The notes: generated from the letters alone by a model not told the origin. A stretch of 64,000 bases of DNA from an uncultured Candidatus Saccharibacteria bacterium (GCA_965230995.1 OZ246398.1:592213-656212), one strand, 5' to 3'; shown: positions 5,282 through 39,791, counted from the first letter of the stretch. Program-made: numbers and translations.

Positions 5282-5389
5282 AATAGTGAGGAATTTAATC
5301 TTACGTATATGCAATCATTTTTGCTACAAAATATTATTAAATATATAATATAGTAGGCAAGGCTCGTTCGGTGAAAGGAGGTGATCTAG

Positions 5390-5515
5390 ATGGGAAACAA
5401 AACTGGCAATCGCGGAACGCCAGTTCCAGGCACTGGGTCGAAATCGACTAAGAACGTCAACAAGTCGAGCGGCTCCAAACAGTCTGGTACTTCCAGCAAG
5501 TCGGTAAGGAAGTAA
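5390..5515 (+). CDS. Small basic Gly/Ser/Lys-rich peptide (41 aa), paralog of 8295-8444.
   Basis: AGGAGGTG SD 6 nt before the ATG. Peptide is MGNKTGNRGTPVPGTGSKS.... It shares N-x4-N-x-RG-x-PV-x-GTG with the second peptide while the DNA diverges at synonymous sites. It falls below the ORF-track length cut-off. Confidence 0.5.
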   Translation: MGNKTGNRGTPVPGTGSKSTKNVNKSSGSKQSGTSSKSVRK

Positions 5516-5521
5516 CATCCC

Positions 5522-10787: not shown

Positions 10788-10859
10788 ATATTTTAGGTAA
10801 TGTTTAACCCCGCTCCAGCAACCTGGCGGGCGGGGTCTAGGTTCGTGTTGAACCGGGAA

Positions 10860-11105
10860 TCAGTGGCGGAATGGGGGTTCGTTCTCCCACGTTTGCTGGC
10901 TGCGTTTGAGGTGTTCCGATTGGGCACGGAAGTAGGTCACATTGTCAGTTCCGGCATCGGACTCCTTGGTTGTGGGTTCACCCGTTTTGAGCTCTGTGGC
11001 AGCCTTGACTGCCGCCGCAACAAGCATCTGGTTGAAATCAGGGTCACCTGTGACGAGAACTGTGGTACTCATCGTGTCATCCGTGACGAGGACTGTGGTG
11101 CTCAT
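10860..11105 (-). CDS. Hypothetical small protein (81 aa) with an N-terminal tandem repeat, in a GC-rich patch.
   Basis: AAGGGGGTG SD before the start. MSTTVLVTDDT/MSTTVLVTGDP duplication. A GC-rich bidirectional hairpin follows at 10805-10835. Confidence 0.35.
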   Translation of the reverse strand: MSTTVLVTDDTMSTTVLVTGDPDFNQMLVAAAVKAATELKTGEPTTKESDAGTDNVTYFRAQSEHLKRSQQTWENEPPFRH

Positions 11106-11172
11106 AGTGCCACCCCCTTCTTTTCTTAATACAAATTAGCATAAAAATTGCACATTTGCTAGAATTAGCAAT

Positions 11173-12899: not shown

Positions 12900-13266
12900 A
12901 TAATAAAAGAGTTTGCTTTCGGACTGTGTTAGTGGTATTTTATATACAAAGCAATGAAGCTGAAAACACAGCTGAGCTGAGGGAAGAACCGATACTACTG
13001 TCCGCCCAAGGCGGATTACGAAGTATCGTAATAGACCCCTACGGTAGCGCCCGTCACGCGCATTGGTTCGCCGTAACAGTGATCTGTGTAGGTGACCATT
13101 GGTTCGCCGAAGCATTGCGAAGGCGACCCTGATAAGCTTTGACCGCCTGCGTTATTAAACTTTGGCGAGTCGAGGGAAGCAAGGTGGCACCGCGTCGTAA
13201 AGAACGCCCTTGCACGGAAGCGATTATTCGTTTTTGTGCAAGGGTGTTTTTATTTTATCCTCACAA
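12900..13266 (+). promoter_or_regulatory. T-box riboswitch leader controlling aspS.
   Basis: T-box consensus AAGGUGGCACCGCG at 13181-13194 (UGGC implies a discriminator G). It overlaps an antiterminator/terminator pair, cccttgcac...gtgcaaggg plus U-run, at 13207-13266. The GC-rich structured upstream region contains a GAC triplet in a candidate specifier loop. Confidence 0.7.
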
Positions 13267-13298
13267 AAATTCGCTCCATTATCAGTAATTATAAGAAC

Positions 13299-14699
13299 AT
13301 GCAAAGAACATATATTGGTTCCCTCGGGGAACAAAAAGGACAGGAAGTCACCATCAAGGGATGGGTAGATGTCCGTCGCGATCAAGGAAAATTAATTTTC
13401 TTTGATTTTCGTGATATGACCGGATATGTGCAGGGTGTTGTTTTACCAAAATCTCCGGCAATGGAGAAAGCGGGAGAGCTCCGTCCTGAGTGGGTAGTAG
13501 AGATTAAAGGCAAGGTCAATCCAAGGCCTGAAAAAAATGTTCAAGCCGAAAAACAGAACGGTGATATTGAACTTGAAATATTAGATATAAATGTTTTGAA
13601 CAAATCAGAAGCATTGCCAATAGATATTTACGGCGACGGAAAAGAAATCAATGAAGAAGTCAGATTAAAATACAGGTACTTGGATATGCGACGCCCAAGA
13701 CTTCAGAGAATCTTTAGAAATAGACACAAAATTCAACAAGAGACACGTAATTTCTTTACAAAGGAAGGCTTTGTCGAGGTTGAAACTCCAATGATGACAA
13801 GATCTACTCCGGAAGGATCACGTGACTATGTTGTGCCTTCAAGACTAGAGCAGGGAAAGTTTTATGCTCTCCCACAGTCACCTCAGCAATACAAACAGCT
13901 TCTTATGGCTGGTGGTATGGAAAAATATTTTCAATTCGCGAGATGTTTTCGTGACGAAGATACAAGAGGCGACAGACAGCCAGAATTCACACAGATGGAC
14001 TTGGAAATGAGCTTTGTTGAACAAGAAGACGTGATGGCAATAAACGAAAAGGCGCTCATTCATATAGTAAAGACTCTGTATCCACACAAAAAATTCCAGG
14101 AATTACCTTTTCCAAGAATGACCTACAAGGAAGCAATGGAAAAGTATGGAAGCGACAAGCCAGATATCAGAAAAGACAAAAATGATCCAGACTTGCTCGC
14201 ATTTCTTTGGGTTGTAGATTTTCCTTTCTTTGAAAAGGATGATACTAGTCCTTCAGGTTGGACATTCACACACAACCCATTCTCAAGACCAAAGCCAGAA
14301 CATATGGATATGCTCATGAAAAAAGAAAACATTGGCGATATTTTAACCACTCAATATGACATCACATTGAACGGCTATGAGATTGGTGGGGGAAGTATTA
14401 GAAACCACGAACCAGAAGCTCTGAAAAAAGTTTTTGAAGTTATGGGCTACGAAGACACTCGTATTGAAAACAACTTTGGACATATGCTCAAAGCATTCAA
14501 AATGGGCACACCTCCACACGGTGGAATAGCGTGGGGATTTGATAGATTCCTTATGCTCCTTGAATGTGAGCCAAATATCCGCGAAGTAATTCCATTTGCC
14601 AAAACAGGCGAGGGCAAGGACCCAATGATGGAATCTCCGGCAGATATCAGAGAAGAACAACTGCTCGAATTAGGTATTACAGTTAAAAAGAAGAAATAA
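13299..14699 (+). CDS. aspS: Aspartyl-tRNA synthetase (class II, short form).
   Basis: OB domain. Motifs FQFARCFRDED, QMDLEMSF and GGGSIRNH. Start chosen downstream of the T-box terminator; the ORF-track start at 13236 overlaps the leader. Confidence 0.85.
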   Translation: MQRTYIGSLGEQKGQEVTIKGWVDVRRDQGKLIFFDFRDMTGYVQGVVLPKSPAMEKAGELRPEWVVEIKGKVNPRPEKNVQAEKQNGDIELEILDINVLNKSEALPIDIYGDGKEINEEVRLKYRYLDMRRPRLQRIFRNRHKIQQETRNFFTKEGFVEVETPMMTRSTPEGSRDYVVPSRLEQGKFYALPQSPQQYKQLLMAGGMEKYFQFARCFRDEDTRGDRQPEFTQMDLEMSFVEQEDVMAINEKALIHIVKTLYPHKKFQELPFPRMTYKEAMEKYGSDKPDIRKDKNDPDLLAFLWVVDFPFFEKDDTSPSGWTFTHNPFSRPKPEHMDMLMKKENIGDILTTQYDITLNGYEIGGGSIRNHEPEALKKVFEVMGYEDTRIENNFGHMLKAFKMGTPPHGGIAWGFDRFLMLLECEPNIREVIPFAKTGEGKDPMMESPADIREEQLLELGITVKKKK

Positions 14700-22471: not shown

Positions 22472-22599
22472 ATATCTAGTATTCCCCTTTAATAAACTAG
22501 TGAGTGAATTAACGCAAAAATATTTTCTATAAATGGTTACTTATTAATTGTTTATCCCCCAAGTCCTCTGGCTTGGGGGAAATTTGTGCACGATATTGT

Positions 22600-23040
22600 T
22601 TAGTGTTGCAAGCACTTTCTTCCACCTCGAATGTAGCAGTTGTGATTGCCGTCATGACCAGAGACGAGGATCTGTACAACCTCACTCAAGAATGTACAGA
22701 AGCCCTCTGCGGATTGCACCGACTGCCCTCTCCATTCGATAACACCACCCGAAAAGAGCTTGATGTTATCTACCACGATTGAACGTCGAGAAAAGTCACC
22801 AGCATCAGACTCTCTTTCAATCAAGACCTCCTCGACACGGCAAATGCAAAGAGTCATTGATGGCGCATCGAAGATTCCTGGTTCCTCAGTATCACCGAGA
22901 AACCAGTTAAGGTCAGAAAGTGTCTTGCAGTGACGCATCCCATTAGACTCGATCGCCTTCACGATTCGAAGGGTTGAACTGGTCGCACCGACAAGAAGCT
23001 CAAGTGAAGCATCTTTTCTAACGATGTTGATTTCCATCAC
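22600..23040 (-). CDS. Hypothetical protein in a GC-rich island.
   Basis: GGGAG SD before a GTG/ATG start. No recognisable motifs. Confidence 0.45.
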   Translation of the reverse strand: MMEINIVRKDASLELLVGATSSTLRIVKAIESNGMRHCKTLSDLNWFLGDTEEPGIFDAPSMTLCICRVEEVLIERESDAGDFSRRSIVVDNIKLFSGGVIEWRGQSVQSAEGFCTFLSEVVQILVSGHDGNHNCYIRGGRKCLQH

Positions 23041-23256
23041 GTTAATGTCTCCCTTTGGGGGTATGGAGAAGTTTCAAGGTTCAGAACAAGAAGCTAGGAG
23101 ATATCCAAGACCTAATTATACACCCACCAGAATTTTATACAATCAATTAAAAGAATGGGGCTTCCTTCGCAATATATAACAAAACAATAAGGCCCGAGGG
23201 CGGCCTTATTGCCGACACTCGGGTCGTTGGTTGCCAATAGATATTGGCCCCTCTAC

Positions 23257-23589
23257 CTATGCAATCCGACTGCCTCGCTTCCTCGCCCCGAATCTAATAA
23301 CGGGCGGAAGCCCCTTTCTAAGGTCTGTGATGACCTTTCGAGACACGAGTGCCCTGAAAGCACAGTAGCCGACTGCTGTAAGTTGCAAAACAAAAAACAA
23401 GGCACAAATAATACTGATGATGATACCGTCCTCGATCTGAACAAAGACGTAGTACCAGTATCCGATAAAGACGAGTGTCTGTACATCAACGGATACCTCA
23501 GAAAGACGGCGCCGAAAGATAAAAACAAAACAGTACCAAGCCGCCACCGCAAGTGTCACGAAGGGTTGCAGAAGGATGTCGTTCAACAT
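23257..23589 (-). CDS. Small 3-TM membrane protein (holin-like size).
   Basis: AAGGAG SD 8 nt before the ATG (MLNDILL...). Three hydrophobic helices. The opposite-strand ORF 23209-23628 was judged spurious. Confidence 0.5.
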   Translation of the reverse strand: MLNDILLQPFVTLAVAAWYCFVFIFRRRLSEVSVDVQTLVFIGYWYYVFVQIEDGIIISIICALFFVLQLTAVGYCAFRALVSRKVITDLRKGLPPVIRFGARKRGSRIA

Positions 23590-23643
23590 GGCAAGGTTCT
23601 CCTTGGTTACAAAAGTACAATACAATAAATCAAGACAAAAAAC

Positions 23644-32795: not shown

Positions 32796-33251
32796 ATGAC
32801 AATAGCAGAAAATATAAAGAAATTGACAATAGAAGCGATGAAGGCCAAAGATCCTCTACGAACAGACACGCTTCGTGGATTAACTGCTGGTTTTGTTAGC
32901 GAGCTCACTTCACAAAAGAGACCTCCTAATGATCCTGTGACTGACGAAATTGCTTTGGCAGTAATCAAAAGACAAGTAAAGCAAAGAAAGGATTCTATCG
33001 AACAATTTACAAAAGGTGGTAGACCAGAATTGGCAGATAAAGAAAAATTGGAGCTTACGATACTCGAAAGTTTTCTCCCAGCACAAATGAGCGAAGAGGA
33101 AATTGAAAAAATTGTGAGCGCCAAAATGACAGAGCTCGGTGTAACAGATAAAAGCGGTATGGGAAAACTAATGGGAGCAGTAATGAAAGAAACGGGCGGA
33201 AATGCAGACGGAGCAATTGTAAAGAAAATAATAGAATCAAAGTTTAATTAA
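32796..33251 (+). CDS. GatB/YqeY-domain protein.
   Basis: YqeY-like helical repeats; typical size. Confidence 0.7.
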   Translation: MTIAENIKKLTIEAMKAKDPLRTDTLRGLTAGFVSELTSQKRPPNDPVTDEIALAVIKRQVKQRKDSIEQFTKGGRPELADKEKLELTILESFLPAQMSEEEIEKIVSAKMTELGVTDKSGMGKLMGAVMKETGGNADGAIVKKIIESKFN

Positions 33252-33258
33252 AAAATTC

Positions 33259-33297
33259 CACCCGCCGAAGGCTCTGCCTTCGGCGGGTTTCGTTTCT
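33259..33297. terminator. Bidirectional GC hairpin terminator.
   Basis: cccgccgaagg-ctct-gccttcggcggg followed by ttt. Confidence 0.7.
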
Positions 33298-33299
33298 GC

Positions 33300-33560
33300 T
33301 CAGTTGAGGTGTTTGGAATCGTAGATCTCCTTGCTTTTAGCGAGAAAGAGATTCCTCAAATCACCCAGAACTGCCAGAAACTTGGGGTAGGCTTCGGGAT
33401 GACGAGGCGAGATGTAAACAGAGACGTTTACACCAACACCGTTGCGAGAGAGTTCGAACCGAAGACCTTCGATTCGAAGATTCTTCATCACCATCTCGAC
33501 AGCACACAAAGAGACCATCTCCTCGACAGAAAACACGTGATCAGCATTGCGAGTACACAT
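33300..33560 (-). CDS. Hypothetical small protein (86 aa) in a GC-rich island.
   Basis: GGAGGGGG SD 6 nt before the ATG (MCTRNADHVF...). A TTTCCA-aagc-TGGAAA palindrome lies upstream. Confidence 0.4.
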   Translation of the reverse strand: MCTRNADHVFSVEEMVSLCAVEMVMKNLRIEGLRFELSRNGVGVNVSVYISPRHPEAYPKFLAVLGDLRNLFLAKSKEIYDSKHLN

Positions 33561-33812
33561 CTCGGCCCCCTCCGTTAAAGAACTAGTTTCCAGAATCACC
33601 ATGACTCTGGAAACTAGGAGCAAATATTGCGCATAATTTCCAAAGCTGGAAACAGAAAGTCCCCTTTCGGGGACTTTCTTTACGCAATTAACGATTTTTA
33701 GACTATTTCAGTTTTTGCATACAAAGAAAGCTCCCGAAGGGGATTCCCAGCAGCAGACCCAAAACTGAAATATTTAACTTCATAAATTAATAATATCAAC
33801 TAAATGTTTGCT

Positions 33813-33846
33813 GTCAAACAAAAAGGGTGCGCGCAAGGCACACCCA
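33813..33846 (-). terminator. Rho-independent terminator on the minus strand.
   Basis: gggtgtgc-cttgc-gcgcaccc followed by a T5 run on the minus strand. Confidence 0.55.
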
Positions 33847-33856
33847 CACAAAAGGA

Positions 33857-34051
33857 TCAGGGCTGACGGAGTGAAAAAGTGCCATCGGGCAACTTCACCA
33901 CACCAGCCTTCTCCATACCCAAATTGAACCACCTCCTCGCAAGCTGTTGGTCCTCCGCAGGCATTTTCGGAATGGAAGGACCATTTTGAAATGCCAAGAA
34001 AATCCGATTAGGATCAGGAGAACCGACTTGCACTACAGTTTGTTCGCTCAT
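33857..34051 (-). CDS. Hypothetical small protein (64 aa), co-regulated with the PDT-like gene.
   Basis: GTGGAGG SD 6 nt before ATG (MSEQTVVQ...). GC-rich. Own copy of the conserved upstream operator. Confidence 0.45.
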   Translation of the reverse strand: MSEQTVVQVGSPDPNRIFLAFQNGPSIPKMPAEDQQLARRWFNLGMEKAGVVKLPDGTFSLRQP

Positions 34052-34081
34052 ACCAAACCTCCACACAATGTTGTTGACGTT

Positions 34082-34158
34082 AAAGAACTATTGGTACAAC
34101 ATTTTGTACCAAAATGTAGCTACGTAAATACATAACGACATTTTGATAAAAAACAAAA
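34082..34158 (-). promoter_or_regulatory. Promoter/operator region, copy A. Contains the palindrome GGTACAAC-ATTT-TGTACC.
   Basis: About 75 nt, near-identical to 35081-35157. Both lie upstream of minus-strand genes. Confidence 0.55.
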
Positions 34159-34210
34159 TTAATTTTGGGCTGGGCTGTCGTTTCTCTCCGACAGCCCTTC
34201 CCAATTTGAC

Positions 34211-35062
34211 TCAGTCCCTCACCTCAAAGGGACCAAAGATTTGGTTTTTTGTCACACACAAAGAGAAGAGCTTGCGAGCAATACGAAACCTCCACAGAGC
34301 ACTCCGCTTCATCTCGACTTCGACGCCGAAATGATACGTGCCGTTCTCGATATGAACAGAATGAATCTGCGTCATATTAATCCCGAGAAGCACAAGCGGA
34401 GTGAGAGCAAGCCACAGAGCCCCAGGTATGTTGTGTACCTGGAACGTGAGCACTGCTCTGTTCGTCTTGCCCACCGCCCCAGACACACCACCCGGTGCAA
34501 GCAGGTAGAATGTCGTGACGGCCGGTTCGTCTTCGAATCCCTCGATGAGGACATCGAGACCATAGACCTGGGCGTTCGCAACCGGCCCGAGACAAGCCCA
34601 GTTCTGGTAGCTTTCGTCCTCGGCTACCAATCTCGATGCTTCGCCATTGCTCGGAACCTCCATCGTTTTGACTTGAAGACTACCGACCTTCGCCTTGCAT
34701 GCACCAAAGGACTTTTGATGCCCGATGATGCCAGCGACCTGCTCGATACTCATACCCTTCCTCGCCATCAAGGCAAAAGTAATGGGCATTTTGTATCCAG
34801 CAACGATCGCAGGTACACTGCCCGTGCGAAGAAGAGCGATAAGCGCATCGAGAGACTCGGTCACGCGACCCTGAGCCAGAGTCTCGACAGCAAGAGCGCC
34901 CCAAGCCGATTTCGTCATCACCACAGACACAACATCACCATTTCTGGCAGTCGGAATGTAGTTTCGATCGGAAACAGCAGGAGCCCCAAAGTTCTGGACG
35001 AAGTACTCATATGCTACATGAGTAAACGTAGAACCAAACGGCCCGAGATAAGTAACATTCAT
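34211..35062 (-). CDS. pheA: Prephenate dehydratase-like protein (PDT domain plus C-terminal ACT domain).
   Basis: N-terminal VTYLGPFGSTFTHVAY, a TTF motif corresponding to the catalytic TRF, and an ACT-like C-terminus with the ESRP motif diverged. GC-rich. Confidence 0.6.
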   Translation of the reverse strand: MNVTYLGPFGSTFTHVAYEYFVQNFGAPAVSDRNYIPTARNGDVVSVVMTKSAWGALAVETLAQGRVTESLDALIALLRTGSVPAIVAGYKMPITFALMARKGMSIEQVAGIIGHQKSFGACKAKVGSLQVKTMEVPSNGEASRLVAEDESYQNWACLGPVANAQVYGLDVLIEGFEDEPAVTTFYLLAPGGVSGAVGKTNRAVLTFQVHNIPGALWLALTPLVLLGINMTQIHSVHIENGTYHFGVEVEMKRSALWRFRIARKLFSLCVTKNQIFGPFEVRD

Positions 35063-35080
35063 CGTAGATCCCTCTCTTTA

Positions 35081-35157
35081 GTGTGATTGTAAAGAACTCT
35101 CGGTACAACGTTTTGTACCAAAGTGTTGCTGTGTAATACATAGCGACATTTTGATAC
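35081..35157 (-). promoter_or_regulatory. Promoter/operator region, copy B. Contains the palindrome GGTACAAC-GTTT-TGTACC.
   Basis: Direct-repeat copy of 34082-34158. Confidence 0.55.
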
Positions 35158-35180
35158 AAAACAAAAGCCCCGCTTACGCG
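35154..35180. terminator. GC hairpin terminator, with a degenerate second copy at 35218-35245.
   Basis: aaaagccccgc-ttac-gcggggctttt. Confidence 0.6.
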
Positions 35181-35314
35181 GGGCTTTTGCTGTAGTTTCA
35201 TTTCTCTTTTTTAAATACTAGCAAAATTCCCCGCTACGCGGTTATATGCAAAAAAGAAAAATGAAAACCAATTTGACTTCATATTTAAATACTATCAGTT
35301 TAGAGTATTTTTTG

Positions 35315-36385
35315 TCAAATACCCTTTTCTATTCTCTTACAGATATCAGAAATGATATGCGGGCCTTCGTATATCATCCCAGTAATCAATTGCACCAAGT
35401 CTGCGCCGGCATTAATTTTTTCTATCGCATCATCGGCACTCATAATTCCACCACAACCGATAATGGTCATTTTGTTTCCGACTTTTGATCTGGTTTTTTT
35501 AATTAATTTTGTCGACAATTCTCTGCATGGATCACCAGACATTCCACCTCTCGCCTTTCCGCTTGCTTCTTCGGGATGTTTTAGACAAGATATTTCTTTG
35601 TTTAGATTTCCAATCACATATCCTTTTACAAAAGGAAATTTAAGCGACACATCAATTAATTTTGAAAAATCTTCCCATTCGAGATTTATTGGCATTTTCA
35701 AATATACAGGTTTATCTGTTTTAATTTTAGCCAATTGCACAAGGAGCATTTGGAGAGCGTGCGGTGTTGCATATGCTTCGCCACAATATGAATTTGGGCA
35801 AGAAATATTTATGGTGTAATAGTCGCCTATTTTTTCTTTGTTCAGTCTTTCAAAAGAATATACATAATCCTCTACCCCACCCTCGAGAGTTTTACACAAG
35901 ACATCATTCGTTCTTGCTATGCTCACACCAATAACAAAATCCTTCGGTATATGTGATTTTTTAATTCTACGAATTACAGTATCAACTCCATCGTTTCGGA
36001 GACCTTTTCTCACGATAATACTTCCTGATTTTTTGAGCCTAATTAAACGAGGCTTTCTATTCCCTTCACAAGCTCTCGCTGTGACAGAGCCGATTTCTTC
36101 ACCACCAAAACCGAGCGAAGCAAGTATCCCTGTAAGTTTTCCATTGTAATCAAAACCAGCAGAAAGCAGGACTGGCGTTTTGTATTTTATTCCATCAATT
36201 GTTTTTGAAATGTCTTTGCCATGATACCCATACAACAAAGAAATAATTTTTCTACTGATAGAAAAATACCCAAGTAATCTTCCTTTTGCAATGAAAATAT
36301 TATGAACAAATTCCGGATCAAAGATAAACAGAAATGGTTTTAGGATATAGCGGTATAAAAATTTCATATAGGCATTATATATCAA
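35315..36385 (-). CDS. pyrD: Dihydroorotate dehydrogenase (class 2-like).
   Basis: TIM-barrel motifs NISCPNS and IGCGGI, with an N-terminal membrane-association helix. Confidence 0.75.
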   Translation of the reverse strand: MIYNAYMKFLYRYILKPFLFIFDPEFVHNIFIAKGRLLGYFSISRKIISLLYGYHGKDISKTIDGIKYKTPVLLSAGFDYNGKLTGILASLGFGGEEIGSVTARACEGNRKPRLIRLKKSGSIIVRKGLRNDGVDTVIRRIKKSHIPKDFVIGVSIARTNDVLCKTLEGGVEDYVYSFERLNKEKIGDYYTINISCPNSYCGEAYATPHALQMLLVQLAKIKTDKPVYLKMPINLEWEDFSKLIDVSLKFPFVKGYVIGNLNKEISCLKHPEEASGKARGGMSGDPCRELSTKLIKKTRSKVGNKMTIIGCGGIMSADDAIEKINAGADLVQLITGMIYEGPHIISDICKRIEKGI

Positions 36386-36389
36386 AGAA

Positions 36390-36404
36390 TATGGAAAAAA
36401 TAGC
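36390..36404. repeat. 15-bp perfect direct repeat tatggaaaaaatagc, left copy.
   Basis: Identical copy at 36838-36852. Together they bracket the GC-rich element. Confidence 0.7.
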
Positions 36405-36837
36405 TAATATAAAGTATGATTTACACGGGTTCCAACACCAACGACGAAAGGAGGATACATGCACAGCCCGAATGCCTGACGAATCTCATTTCTGTATAAT
36501 GGGCCAACCACCAAAACCGACCCCACAGGCTAATTTGGGGCACGGCTACAGGGTCATGGTGGACATGTTCTTCGGAGCAAGCCTTCGCACCGGATGCCTA
36601 CCAAGTGAGTTAGGAAAAGAAGGGCGAAGTTTGTGGGTTTGCTCAATGGGAATATGCTGTTGTTCCCCCAAGGACGTACAACCCGATCAACCACGAAGTG
36701 GTAAACAACAGGTGGTAGTGATACCACGGTGTCTGGTAGACACACCCAGATGAAGTGGCTTTGCCCACATACTCTACCAAATTCCGGTGCGTCAGCAATG
36801 ACGCACCAATTTATTTATCGAGAAATAATGATTTTAA
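36405..36837 (+). ncRNA. Unclassified GC-rich structured non-coding element ending in a hairpin plus U-tract terminator.
   Basis: No credible ORF on either strand. Multiple GC stems. Terminator ggtgcgtca-gcaa-tgacgcacc plus a T-run at 36786-36818. Flanked by 15-bp direct repeats. Confidence 0.4.
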
Positions 36838-36852
36838 TATGGAAAAAATAGC
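36838..36852. repeat. 15-bp perfect direct repeat tatggaaaaaatagc, right copy.
   Basis: See the left copy at 36390-36404. Confidence 0.7.
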
Positions 36853-36981
36853 AGTTTGTGCTATATTATGAAAGTTCTAAATAGAACAATGGCCTTATCG
36901 TTAAATGAAGAAAGGAGCGATAGCGACTATTCTGAATTTATGCCAGAGCCAAAAATATAGAGACATAATTGAATATAAATT

Positions 36982-37054
36982 GGCCTTATCGTCTAACGGT
37001 TAGGACGAAGCCTTCTCAAGGCTTAAATCGGGGTTCGATTCCCCGTAAGGTCAC
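36982..37054 (+). tRNA. tRNA-Glu (anticodon CUC), no encoded CCA.
   Basis: Cloverleaf folded by hand. Acceptor GGCCTTA/TAAGGTC. Anticodon stem AAGCC/GGCTT with loop TTCTCAA. T-arm CGGGG-TTCGATT-CCCCG. Confidence 0.8.
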
Positions 37055-37056
37055 AT

Positions 37057-37104
37057 AAAACAGTTAGTCCGGATGCGAATAGCATTCGGGCTTTACTGTT
37101 TTAC
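37057..37104 (+). terminator. Structured terminator after the tRNA.
   Basis: aaaacagt...actgtttt outer stem enclosing ccggatgc/gcattcgg. Confidence 0.5.
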
Positions 37105-37410
37105 TGAACATATGGGAATCGAAAGACGGAGCCGGTATACAAGATTTTACGAAATGAAATGGAGTAAAATACTTGTCGGCGAGTCGGGGTCGCGACCTTC
37201 GTTGCGGAGATTTATCGAAGCAGAAGAGTTGTGACCGATTCCCCGTTTGAAGTGATAGCGAACAATTATACTTAGTGACTCGTGATCACAGCAATTAAAT
37301 AAATAGGAAACCTATACTGTCCATGTAATGGAAGATTTCCCGTAGGGATACATCTCCCATAACTTTAAATATGGCATTTTGGAATAATACGCAATGGAAT
37401 ATTATTATAT

Positions 37411-37638
37411 ATGCATATGCCAAGAGCAATTTATAATGATGAACATAAGGAAATTATTGAACGCTTAAAACAGGCTCGTCTTGAAGCTGATCTCGGTCAA
37501 ATTGAAGTAGCTGAAAAACTCGGCAGAACTCAGTCATATGTCTCAAAAATAGAATCGGGACAGAGACGCCTTGACGTTTTGCAACTTAAAGAGTTTGCAA
37601 AACTTTATAAAAAATCGCTAGATTTTTTCGTTAAATAA
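37411..37638 (+). CDS. XRE-family HTH regulator; probable controller (C) protein of an R-M system.
   Basis: 75-aa HTH_3 domain (QIEVAEKLGRTQSYVSKIESG). Its stop lies 2 nt before the downstream gene, the classic C-R arrangement. Confidence 0.6.
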   Translation: MHMPRAIYNDEHKEIIERLKQARLEADLGQIEVAEKLGRTQSYVSKIESGQRRLDVLQLKEFAKLYKKSLDFFVK

Positions 37639-37640
37639 TT

Positions 37641-38213
37641 ATGAAAATTTTAGAACATAAAGCAAAAGTATTTGGTCAAGAATGTAAGCTTGAACTTATG
37701 CATTTTAATAAAAATGATGGAAAGGAATGGAAAAGAATTTTTGATATTTGGAAAGAGTTAAAGCTTGGTTTGAGAGGTTATAAATCCCGTGAACCAAATA
37801 TGCCTGAGGGCTTATCAGAAGTCGCCTTTTGTCTTTGGTCGGGTTCTGCGAGATATATAAAATTAAAAGGCGCCAAGAAAGGAATAGCTGGTTCATTTGA
37901 TACTTTTAATTTAAAGTCAAACAAGGCTCAACAAATAAAAGCTTGTAGTATTGAAGATGATCTAACTTCCTTTGGACCAAAATCAAAATGGGACGATTTG
38001 TATTTTGTGGATTTTTATAACGGCGGTAAAATTGATGGTAAATTTGATATCTATTTAATTCCTAATAAATACATCAAAAATCAATCATTGAATAAGAAAG
38101 AATCTTTTACAGATCAGCAGGCACAAAAAAGACGACCTCGTTTTGGAATTAAAAAACAAATTATTACAAAATATAAAATCAAACCTCTAGCTAGTAAGGT
38201 AAAAGTTTGGTAA
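37641..38213 (+). CDS. Putative type II restriction endonuclease (hypothetical).
   Basis: Position follows the C gene and is convergent with the MTase. No clear family match. Possible degenerate D...(E/Q)xK. Confidence 0.35.
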   Translation: MKILEHKAKVFGQECKLELMHFNKNDGKEWKRIFDIWKELKLGLRGYKSREPNMPEGLSEVAFCLWSGSARYIKLKGAKKGIAGSFDTFNLKSNKAQQIKACSIEDDLTSFGPKSKWDDLYFVDFYNGGKIDGKFDIYLIPNKYIKNQSLNKKESFTDQQAQKRRPRFGIKKQIITKYKIKPLASKVKVW

Positions 38214-39791
38214 TTACTCCATTGCTTTCATCATTTGTTTTGCTACAGCTTCAACGACAGGTACACTCACAGAATTTCCAGCTTGTTTGTATAGTGCTGA
38301 GTCAGATATTTTTGGTAAAATATAATCTTTTGGAAAACCCTGTATCCTAAAGCATTCTAATGGTGTCAGCTTTCGGATGCCTTTCTTGTCCTTAATAATT
38401 GGAACATTGTGCCCACCTGTACCCATGTTTGCGGTTAATGTCGGACAAACTCCACTTTTATTTTCCCTTACATATTGCCTTCTCCATTGATAAACTTTAC
38501 CTTCCTCTTTTACTACATTTTTAAGTTTCTCAAACAATGGTTTACCGTTGTAATAATATTTTTCTGAGACATTACTCTCTAATAAATCAGTTATTTTTGT
38601 TGTTAATTTAATTGGGCTTGGAAACTCAAACCTATCTAAATATATTTTGTTCTTAAAACCAACAATATAAATTCTTTCACGATTTTGAGGAATATTTCCG
38701 TATTCCATTGTGTTTAGGACTTTTACTTTTACATGATAACCCAGGTCTTTTAATGCATCCTCAATAATTTTAAAAGTTTTTCCACCATCATGACTTTTTA
38801 GATTCTTAACATTTTCTAAAAGAAAACCTTCTGGTTTTCTTGCTTCCAAAATACGAGCAATATCAAAAAATAAGTTTCCTCTACCCTTCTCATCATTAAA
38901 CCCCTGTCTATATCCCGCAATAGAAAATGCCTGGCAAGGAAAACCACCTAAAAGAAAATCGAACTTTGGGAGATCATCTATTCCAATTTTTCTTATATCC
39001 TCGACAACCAATTTTGAATCTCTAAAATTCAGATCATAAGTATCCTTACATCGTGTTTCAAAATCGTTTGCAAAAACAGTTTTAAACCCTGCGTTTTCAA
39101 AGCCCAAGCGAATACCACCAACTCCAGCAAATAAATCTATTGTTTTAAACCCATGTTTTGTTTTCTTTTGCTCAAATTCTTTAGGTTCATTATTTGGGTT
39201 ACTAATAACCTGAATTACAACACCCCGAACCTCTACGAACTCTCTAAAAAGAGATTTCATATTTGGGTTCCTTGGTTCAAGTCTGAACCTATCTTTTTCT
39301 TTATAAAGTCTTTTAAGAGTTGCTTCATTTTCGTCAATAATTGCAACAACGGTTTGTCCATTTTCTGCAACAGATTGCTGTTTTATAACAACAATATCGC
39401 CATCAAAAATTCCGTCATCAATCATAGAATCACCCACAACACGGAGGGCATAATATCCTTCGGCTGTTTTAATTTGAGGATTGATTACAGAAACAGAGCC
39501 ATCTCTTTCTTCAATTGCTGGAAGTGGATATCCGGCTTTTATACTTCCAATTATTGGAATTTCTACAATTGACCTTATTTCTTTTTTAGGAGCTAAACTT
39601 CTAGCGGAATTTTCTGATTTTGAAAGATATCCCTTTGTCTTTAGTGAATTGATATGTTCGTGAACTGTAGATACTGCTTTTAGTTTTAGTTTTTTTCTTA
39701 TTTCCTCGATAGTGGGAGCTATACCATTTTCACCAATATATAGATTTATAAAGTCAAAGACTTGTTTTTGTTTTTTTGTAAGGCTTGGCAT
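38214..39791 (-). CDS. LexA (HTH plus S24 autoprotease) fused to a DNA cytosine-5 methyltransferase.
   Basis: LexA part, aa 1-~200: LexA DNA-binding domain, cleavage site IKAG, catalytic GDSM Ser and TLKRL Lys. MTase part, aa ~205-525: motif I DLFAGVGG, motif IV GFPCQAFS, ENV, QNRERIYIVG, RKLTPLECFRIQGFP. Single uninterrupted ORF with no internal start. Confidence 0.75.
   Translation of the reverse strand: MPSLTKKQKQVFDFINLYIGENGIAPTIEEIRKKLKLKAVSTVHEHINSLKTKGYLSKSENSARSLAPKKEIRSIVEIPIIGSIKAGYPLPAIEERDGSVSVINPQIKTAEGYYALRVVGDSMIDDGIFDGDIVVIKQQSVAENGQTVVAIIDENEATLKRLYKEKDRFRLEPRNPNMKSLFREFVEVRGVVIQVISNPNNEPKEFEQKKTKHGFKTIDLFAGVGGIRLGFENAGFKTVFANDFETRCKDTYDLNFRDSKLVVEDIRKIGIDDLPKFDFLLGGFPCQAFSIAGYRQGFNDEKGRGNLFFDIARILEARKPEGFLLENVKNLKSHDGGKTFKIIEDALKDLGYHVKVKVLNTMEYGNIPQNRERIYIVGFKNKIYLDRFEFPSPIKLTTKITDLLESNVSEKYYYNGKPLFEKLKNVVKEEGKVYQWRRQYVRENKSGVCPTLTANMGTGGHNVPIIKDKKGIRKLTPLECFRIQGFPKDYILPKISDSALYKQAGNSVSVPVVEAVAKQMMKAME

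Follow-up and report, generated by a model that had tools for sequence, protein, structure and literature searches.

Lineage-specific orphan sRNA genes and acquired intergenic inserts are recognized by their foreign base composition, by their presence in one lineage, by a promoter and a Rho-independent terminator of their own, and by their linkage to tRNA hotspots. Insertion sequences (IS) and MITEs are discrete segments between perfect direct repeats of local sequence, and integrases that target tRNA genes normally use the tRNA 3' end. Large RNAs such as ROOL, GOLLD, HEARO/omega RNA and OLE, like RNase P RNA and tmRNA, are several hundred nucleotides long. Finally, Campbell-type integration and cassette capture leave a GC-rich cargo within a duplication of upstream or promoter sequence, with both the cargo and the displaced gene keeping promoters.

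Here we analyze a 431-bp segment (36405-36835, + strand) that resembles each of these systems in part. It was found in a 64-kb stretch of AT-rich DNA (hereafter the window; GC content 0.365), where it is placed between pyrD and a tRNA-Glu gene. It has the foreign composition, the single lineage, the putative promoter and terminator and the tRNA-linked hotspot of orphan sRNA genes and acquired inserts, but it is located toward the promoter of the tRNA gene, not at the 3' end, and comes with no integrase or mobility gene. As in IS elements and MITEs, it is bounded by perfect direct repeats of local sequence; unlike them, it has a repeat of 17 bp, more than is usual for the target duplication of a transposase, and no terminal inverted repeats, transposase or second copy. 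Its size, its high GC in an AT-rich genome, its tRNA neighbor and its terminator recall the large RNAs named above, but it matches no covariance model, has no conserved homologs and, taken as a whole, folds no better than shuffled sequences. In contrast to tRNA-targeting integrative elements, its repeat lies in the promoter upstream of the tRNA and includes no part of the tRNA. The likeness to Campbell-type integration or cassette capture extends to a neighbor in the window, a prephenate dehydratase cassette (34081-35166) that consists of a 1009-bp GC-rich unit between 78-bp, 87%-identical copies of upstream sequence. Unlike in that cassette, the duplication around the insert is only 17 bp long and the cargo holds no recognizable gene, and both mechanisms are putative. 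Save for the flanking direct repeat, the segment thus lacks what defines the named RNA families, IS elements and MITEs, and integrase-type islands.

The reading that we favor, with a probability of about 0.55, is that of an orphan insertion organized as an insulated transcription unit, with a borrowed -35 element, a -10 element and a terminator of its own, and with a ncRNA of ~390 nt as its probable product. The 431 bp would be foreign or orphan DNA that entered a short divergent promoter region, originally, in this lineage of Patescibacteria-like bacteria, separating pyrD from tRNA-Glu, which seems to be rearranged repeatedly in relatives.

The insert, its repeats and putative promoters

The left neighbor of the insert, pyrD (35315-36367, - strand), encodes a quinone-type dihydroorotate dehydrogenase (Pfam DHO_dh, E 6e-59). 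Its nearest homologs are in Patescibacteria MAGs, including Zambryskibacteria, Paceibacterota and other Parcubacteria-type genomes, with identities of at most 61% among GTDB species representatives and 74% in a large protein collection. A TATAAT box lies 6 nt before its ATG at 36367, and its mRNA looks leaderless. The same arrangement recurs in the window, where a TATAAT-like box precedes the ATG of many genes by 6-8 nt and a Shine-Dalgarno-like sequence is seen in only 9 of 49; most of the genes appear to give leaderless mRNAs, which would then be common in this host. To the right, the gene for tRNA-Glu (anticodon CUC; 36982-37054, + strand) was identified by ARAGORN and by the Rfam tRNA model (62.8 bits).

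An earlier account of this locus, made without database searches (the sequence-only reading), had described a GC-rich, structured, non-coding element bracketed by direct repeats of 15 bp. The difference in composition is clear: the GC content is about 0.49 in the insert as delimited here, and 0.49-0.54 for the segment between the repeats against 0.27-0.35 in the flanks. Such a segment has not drifted toward the AT-rich composition of the genome, which could reflect either a recent arrival or functional constraint. The repeat is also perfect, but it is 17 nt long (AATATGGAAAAAATAGC), with copies at 36388-36404 (DR1) and 36836-36852 (DR2), both on the + strand. When up to two mismatches were allowed, the 15-mer occurred four times in the window against 0.6 expected, a number reached by no shuffle. 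The downstream copy belongs natively to the tRNA-Glu promoter, as its -35 region, and 15 of the 17 nt, including TGGAAAAAATAGC, are kept at the orthologous promoter of the relative L057/L058. The upstream copy is, as a whole, identical to this -35 region, and its first 8 nt, by comparison with L057, are ancestral sequence of the pyrD side.

Each copy of the 17-mer provides a -35-like TGGAAA with a -10 box 16-17 nt downstream. At the tRNA gene (36840-36867, + strand), TGGAAA is followed after 16 nt by TG-n-TATATT, in a match to the consensus of which both TGGAAAAAATAGC and GCTATATT are kept at the tRNA promoter of L057. At the insert (36392-36420, + strand), TGGAAA is followed after 17 nt by TATGAT (36415-36420), and the promoter-like site matches 9 of 12 consensus positions; matches of this type are not enriched in the region (6 found, 4.0 expected). 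DR1 also overlaps, on the opposite strand, the upstream part of the apparently leaderless pyrD promoter. At the other end of the insert lies the canonical intrinsic terminator that had been read by eye (36786-36817, + strand). It was recovered by a scan and has a 9-bp stem (36786-36807) with 6 G-C pairs, a GCAA loop and a T-rich tail. A sigma-70-type promoter and an intrinsic terminator, both as consensus matches only, are found on the same strand, as in an independent transcription unit.

These elements suggest how the insertion may have been tolerated. The event would have duplicated 17 bp of local sequence, which form the -35 region of the tRNA-Glu promoter, and both flanking genes would for this reason keep their promoters. 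Since the repeat is that -35 region, the insert itself stands behind a promoter copy and before its own terminator, so that pyrD, the insert and the tRNA each keep promoter sequence. The retention of promoters by all three units could explain why an event of this kind alone survived. The insert would combine the -35 copy of the tRNA promoter with its own -10 (TATGAT) just inside the inserted DNA. Transcription, with a start predicted at about 36425-36428, would begin near 36427 and stop at the terminator of the insert, which would also hold read-through off the tRNA promoter. The product would be an orphan transcript of about 390 nt, most likely non-coding. Transcription of the insert is plausible on these grounds.

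No recombinase was found, no inverted repeat pairs the two ends of the insert, and there is no second copy of it in the window, in the 81 loci that we fetched or in the public collections searched. Judged by eye, homology with L057 on the pyrD side may run ~10 nt past DR1 (TAATATAAAG vs AAATATAAAAAG), and the perfection of the 17-mer could therefore stem from gene conversion between older similar sequences.

A second repeat had been included among the target-site-like duplications. The 12-mer TGGCCTTATCGT does occur twice, at 36890-36901 (and not, as first given, at 36893-36904) and at 36981-36992. The downstream copy is not the first 12 nt of the tRNA, which starts at 36982, but the base at -1 followed by the first 11 nt of tRNA-Glu. 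The upstream copy belongs to a decayed duplicate of the 5' half of tRNA-Glu in the tRNA leader (36890-36936, + strand): a local alignment of leader and tRNA covers ~40 nt of the 5' half with a score of 31, which 0.1% of shuffles attain. In the leader of L057 and L058 this relic recurs with 2 mismatches, and longer pseudo-tRNA-Glu copies stand upstream of the real tRNA in L070 and L078. By this comparison, the 12-nt repeat has nothing to do with the insert but is what is left of an older pseudo-tRNA-Glu, and the description as a target-site-like duplication holds for the 17-mer, a conserved element of the tRNA-Glu promoter, but not for this older repeat.

The tRNA-Glu locus carries further scars of recombination, in that 11-23 nt of the tRNA 3' end are repeated downstream of the gene, where contigs also break. 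A tRNA-like structured element (37114-37246) lies downstream of tRNA-Glu as well. It may be more interesting than the insert; when it was aligned across loci, its outer helix was poorly resolved by MAFFT and RNAalifold.

A variable site between pyrD and tRNA-Glu

Among 55 GTDB loci around pyrD, none has tRNA-Glu nearby and none shows sequence similar to the insert. Contigs of closer relatives were obtained via pyrD homologs in a large protein set. In L057 and L058, in which PyrD is 74% identical, the tRNA-Glu is identical and its promoter (TGGAAAAAATAGC ... GCTATATT) and leader are kept. BLAST homology between these loci and the window ends at 36395 on the pyrD side and restarts at 36829 on the tRNA side, so that both breaks fall at or near the two 17-mers and the boundaries of the insert coincide with the repeats. 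In place of the insert, L057 has 1.9 kb with an 84-aa ORF, RadC and a 57%-GC gene for an MGS-domain protein, a block flanked by AAAGTATGGA toward pyrD and by AAAGTGTGGA toward the tRNA. We considered that the insert might be a remnant of these genes, but it has no similarity to the MGS-domain gene, to RadC or to the 84-aa ORF. If the block of each lineage is removed together with one copy of its repeat, both loci give the same inferred junction (...CATTATATATCAAA[A/G]A[G/A]TATGGAAAAAATAGC...). The predicted empty junction before the insertion reads ...TATATATCAAAGAATATGGAAAAAATAGCAGTTTGTGCTATATT....

In a more distant relative, L073/L076 (PyrD identity of 55% at the amino acid level), the divergent pyrD and tRNA-Glu are direct neighbors, at a distance of only 108 nt. 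Other relatives have yet different content upstream of pyrD. In L066, for instance, a 299-aa reverse transcriptase is found there, preceded by two GC-rich, non-coding units that end in terminators; the DNA obtained for this locus showed no tRNA-Glu. Kinship between these units and the insert was also considered and rejected: local alignment gives a score just at the mean of the shuffles, and alignment with MAFFT is not convincing. A scan of metagenomes with the tRNA core gave 12 tRNA-Glu loci among the matches listed, and the insert is absent from these 12 as from the other fetched loci of relatives. Four Logan samples of the community from which the DNA came (SRR14271367, SRR14271372-74) have this locus with 100% identity.

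The insert is thus present in a single lineage, absent at the corresponding site of all relatives examined, and homology with the nearest of them breaks at its ends. These comparisons support a lineage-specific insertion at a variable spot; the sequence-only reading had already taken the element for an inserted one. An arrangement with nothing between the two genes does exist in a relative (L073/L076), but the mobility that had been envisaged along with it is not borne out by any copy of the insert elsewhere in the collections searched. The ancestor might also have carried other genes at this site, later replaced, instead of an empty site.

What the insert may encode

Searches for known RNAs were negative. 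With Rfam 15 at gathering score, the tRNA alone was matched in the whole window, and a permissive search (E<=10) of 36200-37400 gave nothing overlapping 36405-36835. The models covered bacterial RNase P (A and B), tmRNA, SRP, 6S, T-box, ROOL, GOLLD, HEARO, OLE and all others of release 15. These negatives carry weight because the same kind of search detects a divergent T-box and a Phe leader in the window. ARAGORN found only tRNA-Glu over the 64 kb, and no tmRNA. The universal CR-I motif of RNase P RNA is GGAAAGUCC; neither this motif nor the P4 pairing was seen when the insert was inspected by eye, and an attempt to thread it by eye as RNase P RNA (AGAUGAA, CR-I, P4) failed. Collections of phages, plasmids, E. 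coli and IMG/VR hold nothing matching the insert, no DNA homolog was detected across the collections searched, and a literature search on ncRNAs of Patescibacteria gave nothing relevant. By these searches, the insert is not RNase P RNA, tmRNA, SRP RNA, 6S RNA or a member of another Rfam family; the sequence-only reading had found no confident match by eye to the first four of these.

The same reading had found no believable ORF. It overlooked a stop-free frame of 120 codons (36391-36753, + strand; 139 codons if counted from ATG 36334) that begins inside DR1 and spans the GC-rich part, but our tests give the coding status of this frame no support. Frames of this length or longer occur in 6.7% of dinucleotide shuffles of the segment (p = 0.067). 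Purine and GC contents are flat across codon positions: first positions are purines with a frequency of 0.54, while those Pfam-supported genes that were tested, among them the GC-rich prephenate dehydratase, have 0.65-0.78. The translated frame matched nothing in Pfam or PHROG. Among 5.8 billion protein clusters its sole match was itself, from two Logan contigs, and an exhaustive phmmer search of 1.84 billion representatives returned the frame itself and two weak, multi-stretch matches. A scan of metagenomes with the back-translated pattern gave nothing. AF2, run on the single sequence, gave a mean pLDDT of 37 and no confident fold, a result that is uninformative without an alignment. The remaining frames were equally silent: fragments of five frames gave nothing against Pfam, the + strand ORF frame and three - strand frames gave nothing against PHROGs, and the other five frames, joined into one chimeric query, had no match at E<=0.01 among 5.8 billion proteins. 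Since the five remaining frames are without homolog, a recognizable pseudogene fragment is excluded as far as these searches reach. We conclude that coding is not supported and that the frame is probably fortuitous.

Nor does the insert appear structured overall, as had been proposed. For the minimum free energy of the whole element, the + strand has a z-score of -1.2 and the - strand one of -0.3, and the body without the terminator (36427-36785) reaches +0.5, with a 5' half that folds worse than shuffles (positive z). Of the sliding windows (120 nt, 30-nt steps), only the one with the terminator folds better than shuffles (z -3.4). One of the stems quoted earlier, ggtgtct-ggt-agacacc, reads ggtgtct-ggt-agacacacc in the sequence and has 6 clean pairs. 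A candidate folded domain of 236 nt (36535-36770, + strand), closed by GGGGCACGGCUAC and GUGGCUUUGCCC and with hairpins capped by UUCG and GUGA, has a z-score of -2.7 on the + strand and -0.2 on the - strand, but the region was picked after the fold had been seen, and its stability is suggestive only. Finally, 14 nt of the insert (36507-36520) are the exact antisense of pyrD codons at 36101-36114, a match with a p-value of about 0.002 if pyrD alone is the search space and of 0.18 if it is the whole window.

Four other explanations deserve to be weighed against an insulated orphan insertion. A functional, structured, trans-acting ncRNA gene, new and lineage-specific, driven by a tRNA-type promoter and perhaps pairing with targets such as the pyrD mRNA, would fit the architecture of promoter and terminator. 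It would also fit the GC enrichment, which is typical of structured RNAs in this AT-rich genome, such as the T-box at 12945-13214. The 236-nt domain, stable on one strand only and with UUCG and GNRA loops, leaves room for such an RNA, and so does the antisense match when it is judged against pyrD alone. We nevertheless consider this explanation rather unlikely: the body as a whole does not fold better than shuffles, the domain was chosen post hoc, the antisense match loses its significance when the whole window is taken as the search space, covariation has no homologs to draw upon (the copies in the four samples are 100% identical), and the absence from relatives indicates that the clade does not need the element. 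A divergent housekeeping RNA, be it RNase P RNA, tmRNA, SRP RNA or 6S RNA, with a promoter that merely resembles that of a tRNA, is extremely unlikely, although a GC-rich unit of ~390 nt with a tRNA-type promoter and a tRNA neighbor would suit RNase P RNA or tmRNA, and although no such RNA was found elsewhere in the window, which is only 64 kb long. Against it stand the silence of Rfam at E<=10 over 1.2 kb in a window where divergent leaders are detected, the negative ARAGORN result, the lack by eye of CR-I and P4, and the absence of the element from the locus in relatives. A back-translated pattern scan of JGI metagenomes also found no relative, though contigs of relatives were recovered from those metagenomes in other ways. 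The possibility that the repeats were a coincidental duplication beside a housekeeping RNA, raised by the sequence-only reading itself, thus found no support.

A small orphan protein, of 120 aa from ATG 36391 or 94 aa from ATG 36472, followed by the terminator, might be thought to account for a stop-free frame that runs across the GC-rich part to a point 33 nt short of the terminator. Leaderless mRNAs are common in this host, and gene callers did annotate the frame in two Logan assemblies. We regard this as quite unlikely given the frequency of such frames in shuffles and the flat codon positions, which are unlike those of every Pfam-supported gene tested. The product would contain about 6% Cys and has neither a Pfam or PHROG match nor a homolog in the two protein collections (5.8 G clusters and 1.84 G representatives); AF2 adds only weak evidence. 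The first ATG, moreover, is upstream of the predicted transcription start and has no proper -10 at leaderless distance. The segment might instead be inert DNA, left by the decay of a larger integrated island or cassette that had recombined through the 17 bp as an att-like core. A perfect 17-bp direct repeat around DNA of foreign composition beside a tRNA gene would be expected of such a remnant, different cargo occupies the same site in L057 between AAAGTATGGA and AAAGTGTGGA, there are other recombination scars at the tRNA-Glu locus, and the neighboring prephenate dehydratase cassette is bracketed by its 78-bp upstream duplication. But no integrase, integrase fragment or protein similarity was detected in any frame, the site is at the promoter and not at the 3' end of the tRNA, where such integrases normally act, and a good pair of promoter and terminator is retained, so that an island remnant seems improbable.

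The insulated orphan insertion is therefore the reading that we retain. It can be extended, at its boldest, to a small mobile RNA gene, self-contained and of a new kind, that would insert into promoter DNA with a 17-bp target duplication, borrow the -35 of a strong tRNA promoter, fold its RNA into the 236-nt domain and act on the pyrD mRNA through the 14-nt complementarity, but we hold this extension to be very improbable. Nothing shows the insert to be a known, conserved or folded RNA, and its function is at most putative. A young, neutral or selfish passenger is more likely than a functional RNA.

GC-rich islands and the recombination hotspot

The window holds other GC-rich sequences that help to place the insert. 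A divergent T-box leader upstream of AspRS (12945-13214), itself a GC-rich island, is matched at E 2.4e-5 with 32 bits, where the gathering score is 93; a Phe leader (pheL-type attenuator, 35158-35283) is near threshold, with 53.3 bits for a gathering score of 55. Both may merit more attention than the insert. The motifs that the insert has in common with the other GC-rich islands of the window are 9-11-mers at chance level. GC-rich islands in such AT-rich genomes are a mixture of structured RNAs (the T-box, the Phe attenuator), acquired genes and orphans. Because they are mixed, a screen for GC content alone does not identify ncRNAs.

Overall, we regard the segment as a probable lineage-specific orphan insert and a candidate sRNA gene, of an already known kind and a modest curiosity as such. 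What is documented more solidly is a recombination hotspot between pyrD and tRNA-Glu, at which different lineages have nothing (L073 and L076), the insert (the window) or a GC-rich MGS-domain gene with RadC (L057 and L058). To our knowledge, the ncRNAs of Patescibacteria are hardly known. Should the insert prove to be both transcribed and functional, a Patescibacteria-type genome would offer a case of a young RNA gene that arose when DNA was inserted behind a second copy of a tRNA promoter.

The region downstream of tRNA-Glu

Directly after the terminator of the tRNA-Glu gene, about 130 nt (37114-37246, plus strand) form a structured element that resembles a tRNA, with a folding z of -4.1. Its outer helix pairs GGGAATCG with CGATTCCC, the latter being a repeat of the 3' part of the tRNA T-loop/T-stem, and encloses two hairpins, one of them bracketed by GGGGTCGCGA...GTGACC. 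Among the related metagenome loci having enough downstream sequence, most show the same architecture 3' of their tRNA-Glu gene (L069/L071/L077, L070, L072, L073/L076 and L075). Across these loci the hairpins are variable, and the changes in the outer helix are apparently compensatory. Rfam gave no match for this element in a search of 36200-37400 (E<=10). It could be the remnant of an att site, a hairpin for the recombination of single-stranded DNA, or a tRNA-like ncRNA.

The sequence CGATTCCCCGT of the tRNA T-arm (37036-37046) has a second copy 200 nt downstream (37236-37246). Several Logan contigs of the same organism, obtained from other samples, end exactly at 37046 (L056/L080, L079 and L081, from SRR14271373, SRR14271367 and SRR14271374), and another ends at 37237 (L062, from SRR14271372). 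Since both break points of these independent assemblies coincide with the two copies of the repeat, our results suggest variation within the population, either of the 200-bp segment or of whatever follows tRNA-Glu. A restriction-modification island also adjoins the tRNA gene (37411-39791). Its products are an HTH_3 protein (37411-37638) and an endonuclease of the Bsp6I-like type (37641-38213), together with a fusion protein of 525 aa, encoded on the minus strand (38214-39791), in which a LexA DNA-binding domain and a Peptidase_S24 domain are joined to a C-5 cytosine methyltransferase.

pyrD and the prephenate dehydratase cassette

A stretch of 14 nt in the GC-rich insert between pyrD and tRNA-Glu (ACCACCAAAACCGA, 36507-36520) is the exact antisense of pyrD codons in the region of the GFGG motif (36101-36114), so that an RNA made from the insert could, judging from this complementarity, pair with the pyrD mRNA. 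The probability of such a match arising by chance is about 0.002 when the insert is compared with pyrD alone, and 0.18 when it is compared with the whole window.

The GC-rich prephenate dehydratase gene (34211-35062) is preceded by a Phe-attenuator of the classic type (35158-35283, minus strand), which scores 53.3 bits with the Rfam Phe_leader model, against a gathering score of 55. Its leader peptide, MKSNWFSFFFFAYNRVAGNFASI, is leaderless (35211-35282, minus strand), is preceded by the promoter TTGACA-17-TAGTAT-6-ATG, and is followed by a terminator. A Phe-attenuator is unexpected in a Patescibacteria-like genome, which suggests acquisition from another phylum. The prephenate dehydratase gene is flanked by a direct repeat of 78 bp, whose copies are 87% identical and 1009 bp apart (34081-34158 and 35090-35166). 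This repeat duplicates the upstream region, and thus both the gene in the cassette and the next gene retain one. The order of pyrD and the prephenate dehydratase gene is also found in L066, a locus of a relative.

Other GC-rich islands and a T-box leader in the window

The window has 36% GC and contains further islands with GC contents of 0.45-0.58 (5290-5520, 10800-11130, 22550-23600 and 33251-34100), for which Pfam and Rfam gave no identity. In the island at 5290-5520 there is an ORF for a basic protein of 41 aa as well as a perfect Shine-Dalgarno sequence (GAAAGGAGGTGATCTAGATG), in an organism whose genes are mostly leaderless. The one at 10800-11130 has, on the minus strand, an 81-aa ORF whose coding statistics are good and which contains MSTTVLVT(D/G)D as a tandem repeat. 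Elsewhere, a divergent T-box leader (12945-13214, plus strand) precedes the AspRS gene (13236-14699). It covers the Rfam model in full and carries the motif AAGGUGGCACCGCG; its score of 32 bits (E 2.4e-5), against a gathering score of 93, is not reported at the default threshold of Rfam.

Cargo and tRNA-Glu copies in relatives

In L066, whose pyrD is 63% identical, the region upstream of pyrD (560-2151) includes the gene for a 299-aa RVT_1 reverse transcriptase. Lying 5' of this gene are two non-coding units, both GC-rich and about 300 nt long; each closes in a terminator-like hairpin, and they have in common the motifs CACAAAAAC..CAACAACC and GACCTTCCC. Rfam gave no match in these units. Together with the reverse transcriptase, they may form a retron- or DRT-like system. 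Adjoining pyrD in another relative (L057, 5222-5905) is an MGS-domain gene with its own terminator and 57% GC, in a genome of 37-40% GC, which is a further GC-rich acquisition at the pyrD/tRNA-Glu hot spot.

Two other related loci have a pseudo-tRNA-Glu upstream of the real gene, about 90-320 nt upstream of it in L070 and at 4603-4790 in L078. The copies are interrupted by GC-rich modules of 95-190 nt, in the D-loop in L070 and in the T-loop in L078, and both modules contain GGGACCCAA..GGCCGGACTGAGC..GGCGAAGGAGG.GGGGTCGCG-hairpin-CGTGAC. These pseudo-tRNA copies look like the footprints of something that repeatedly targets the tRNA-Glu gene.
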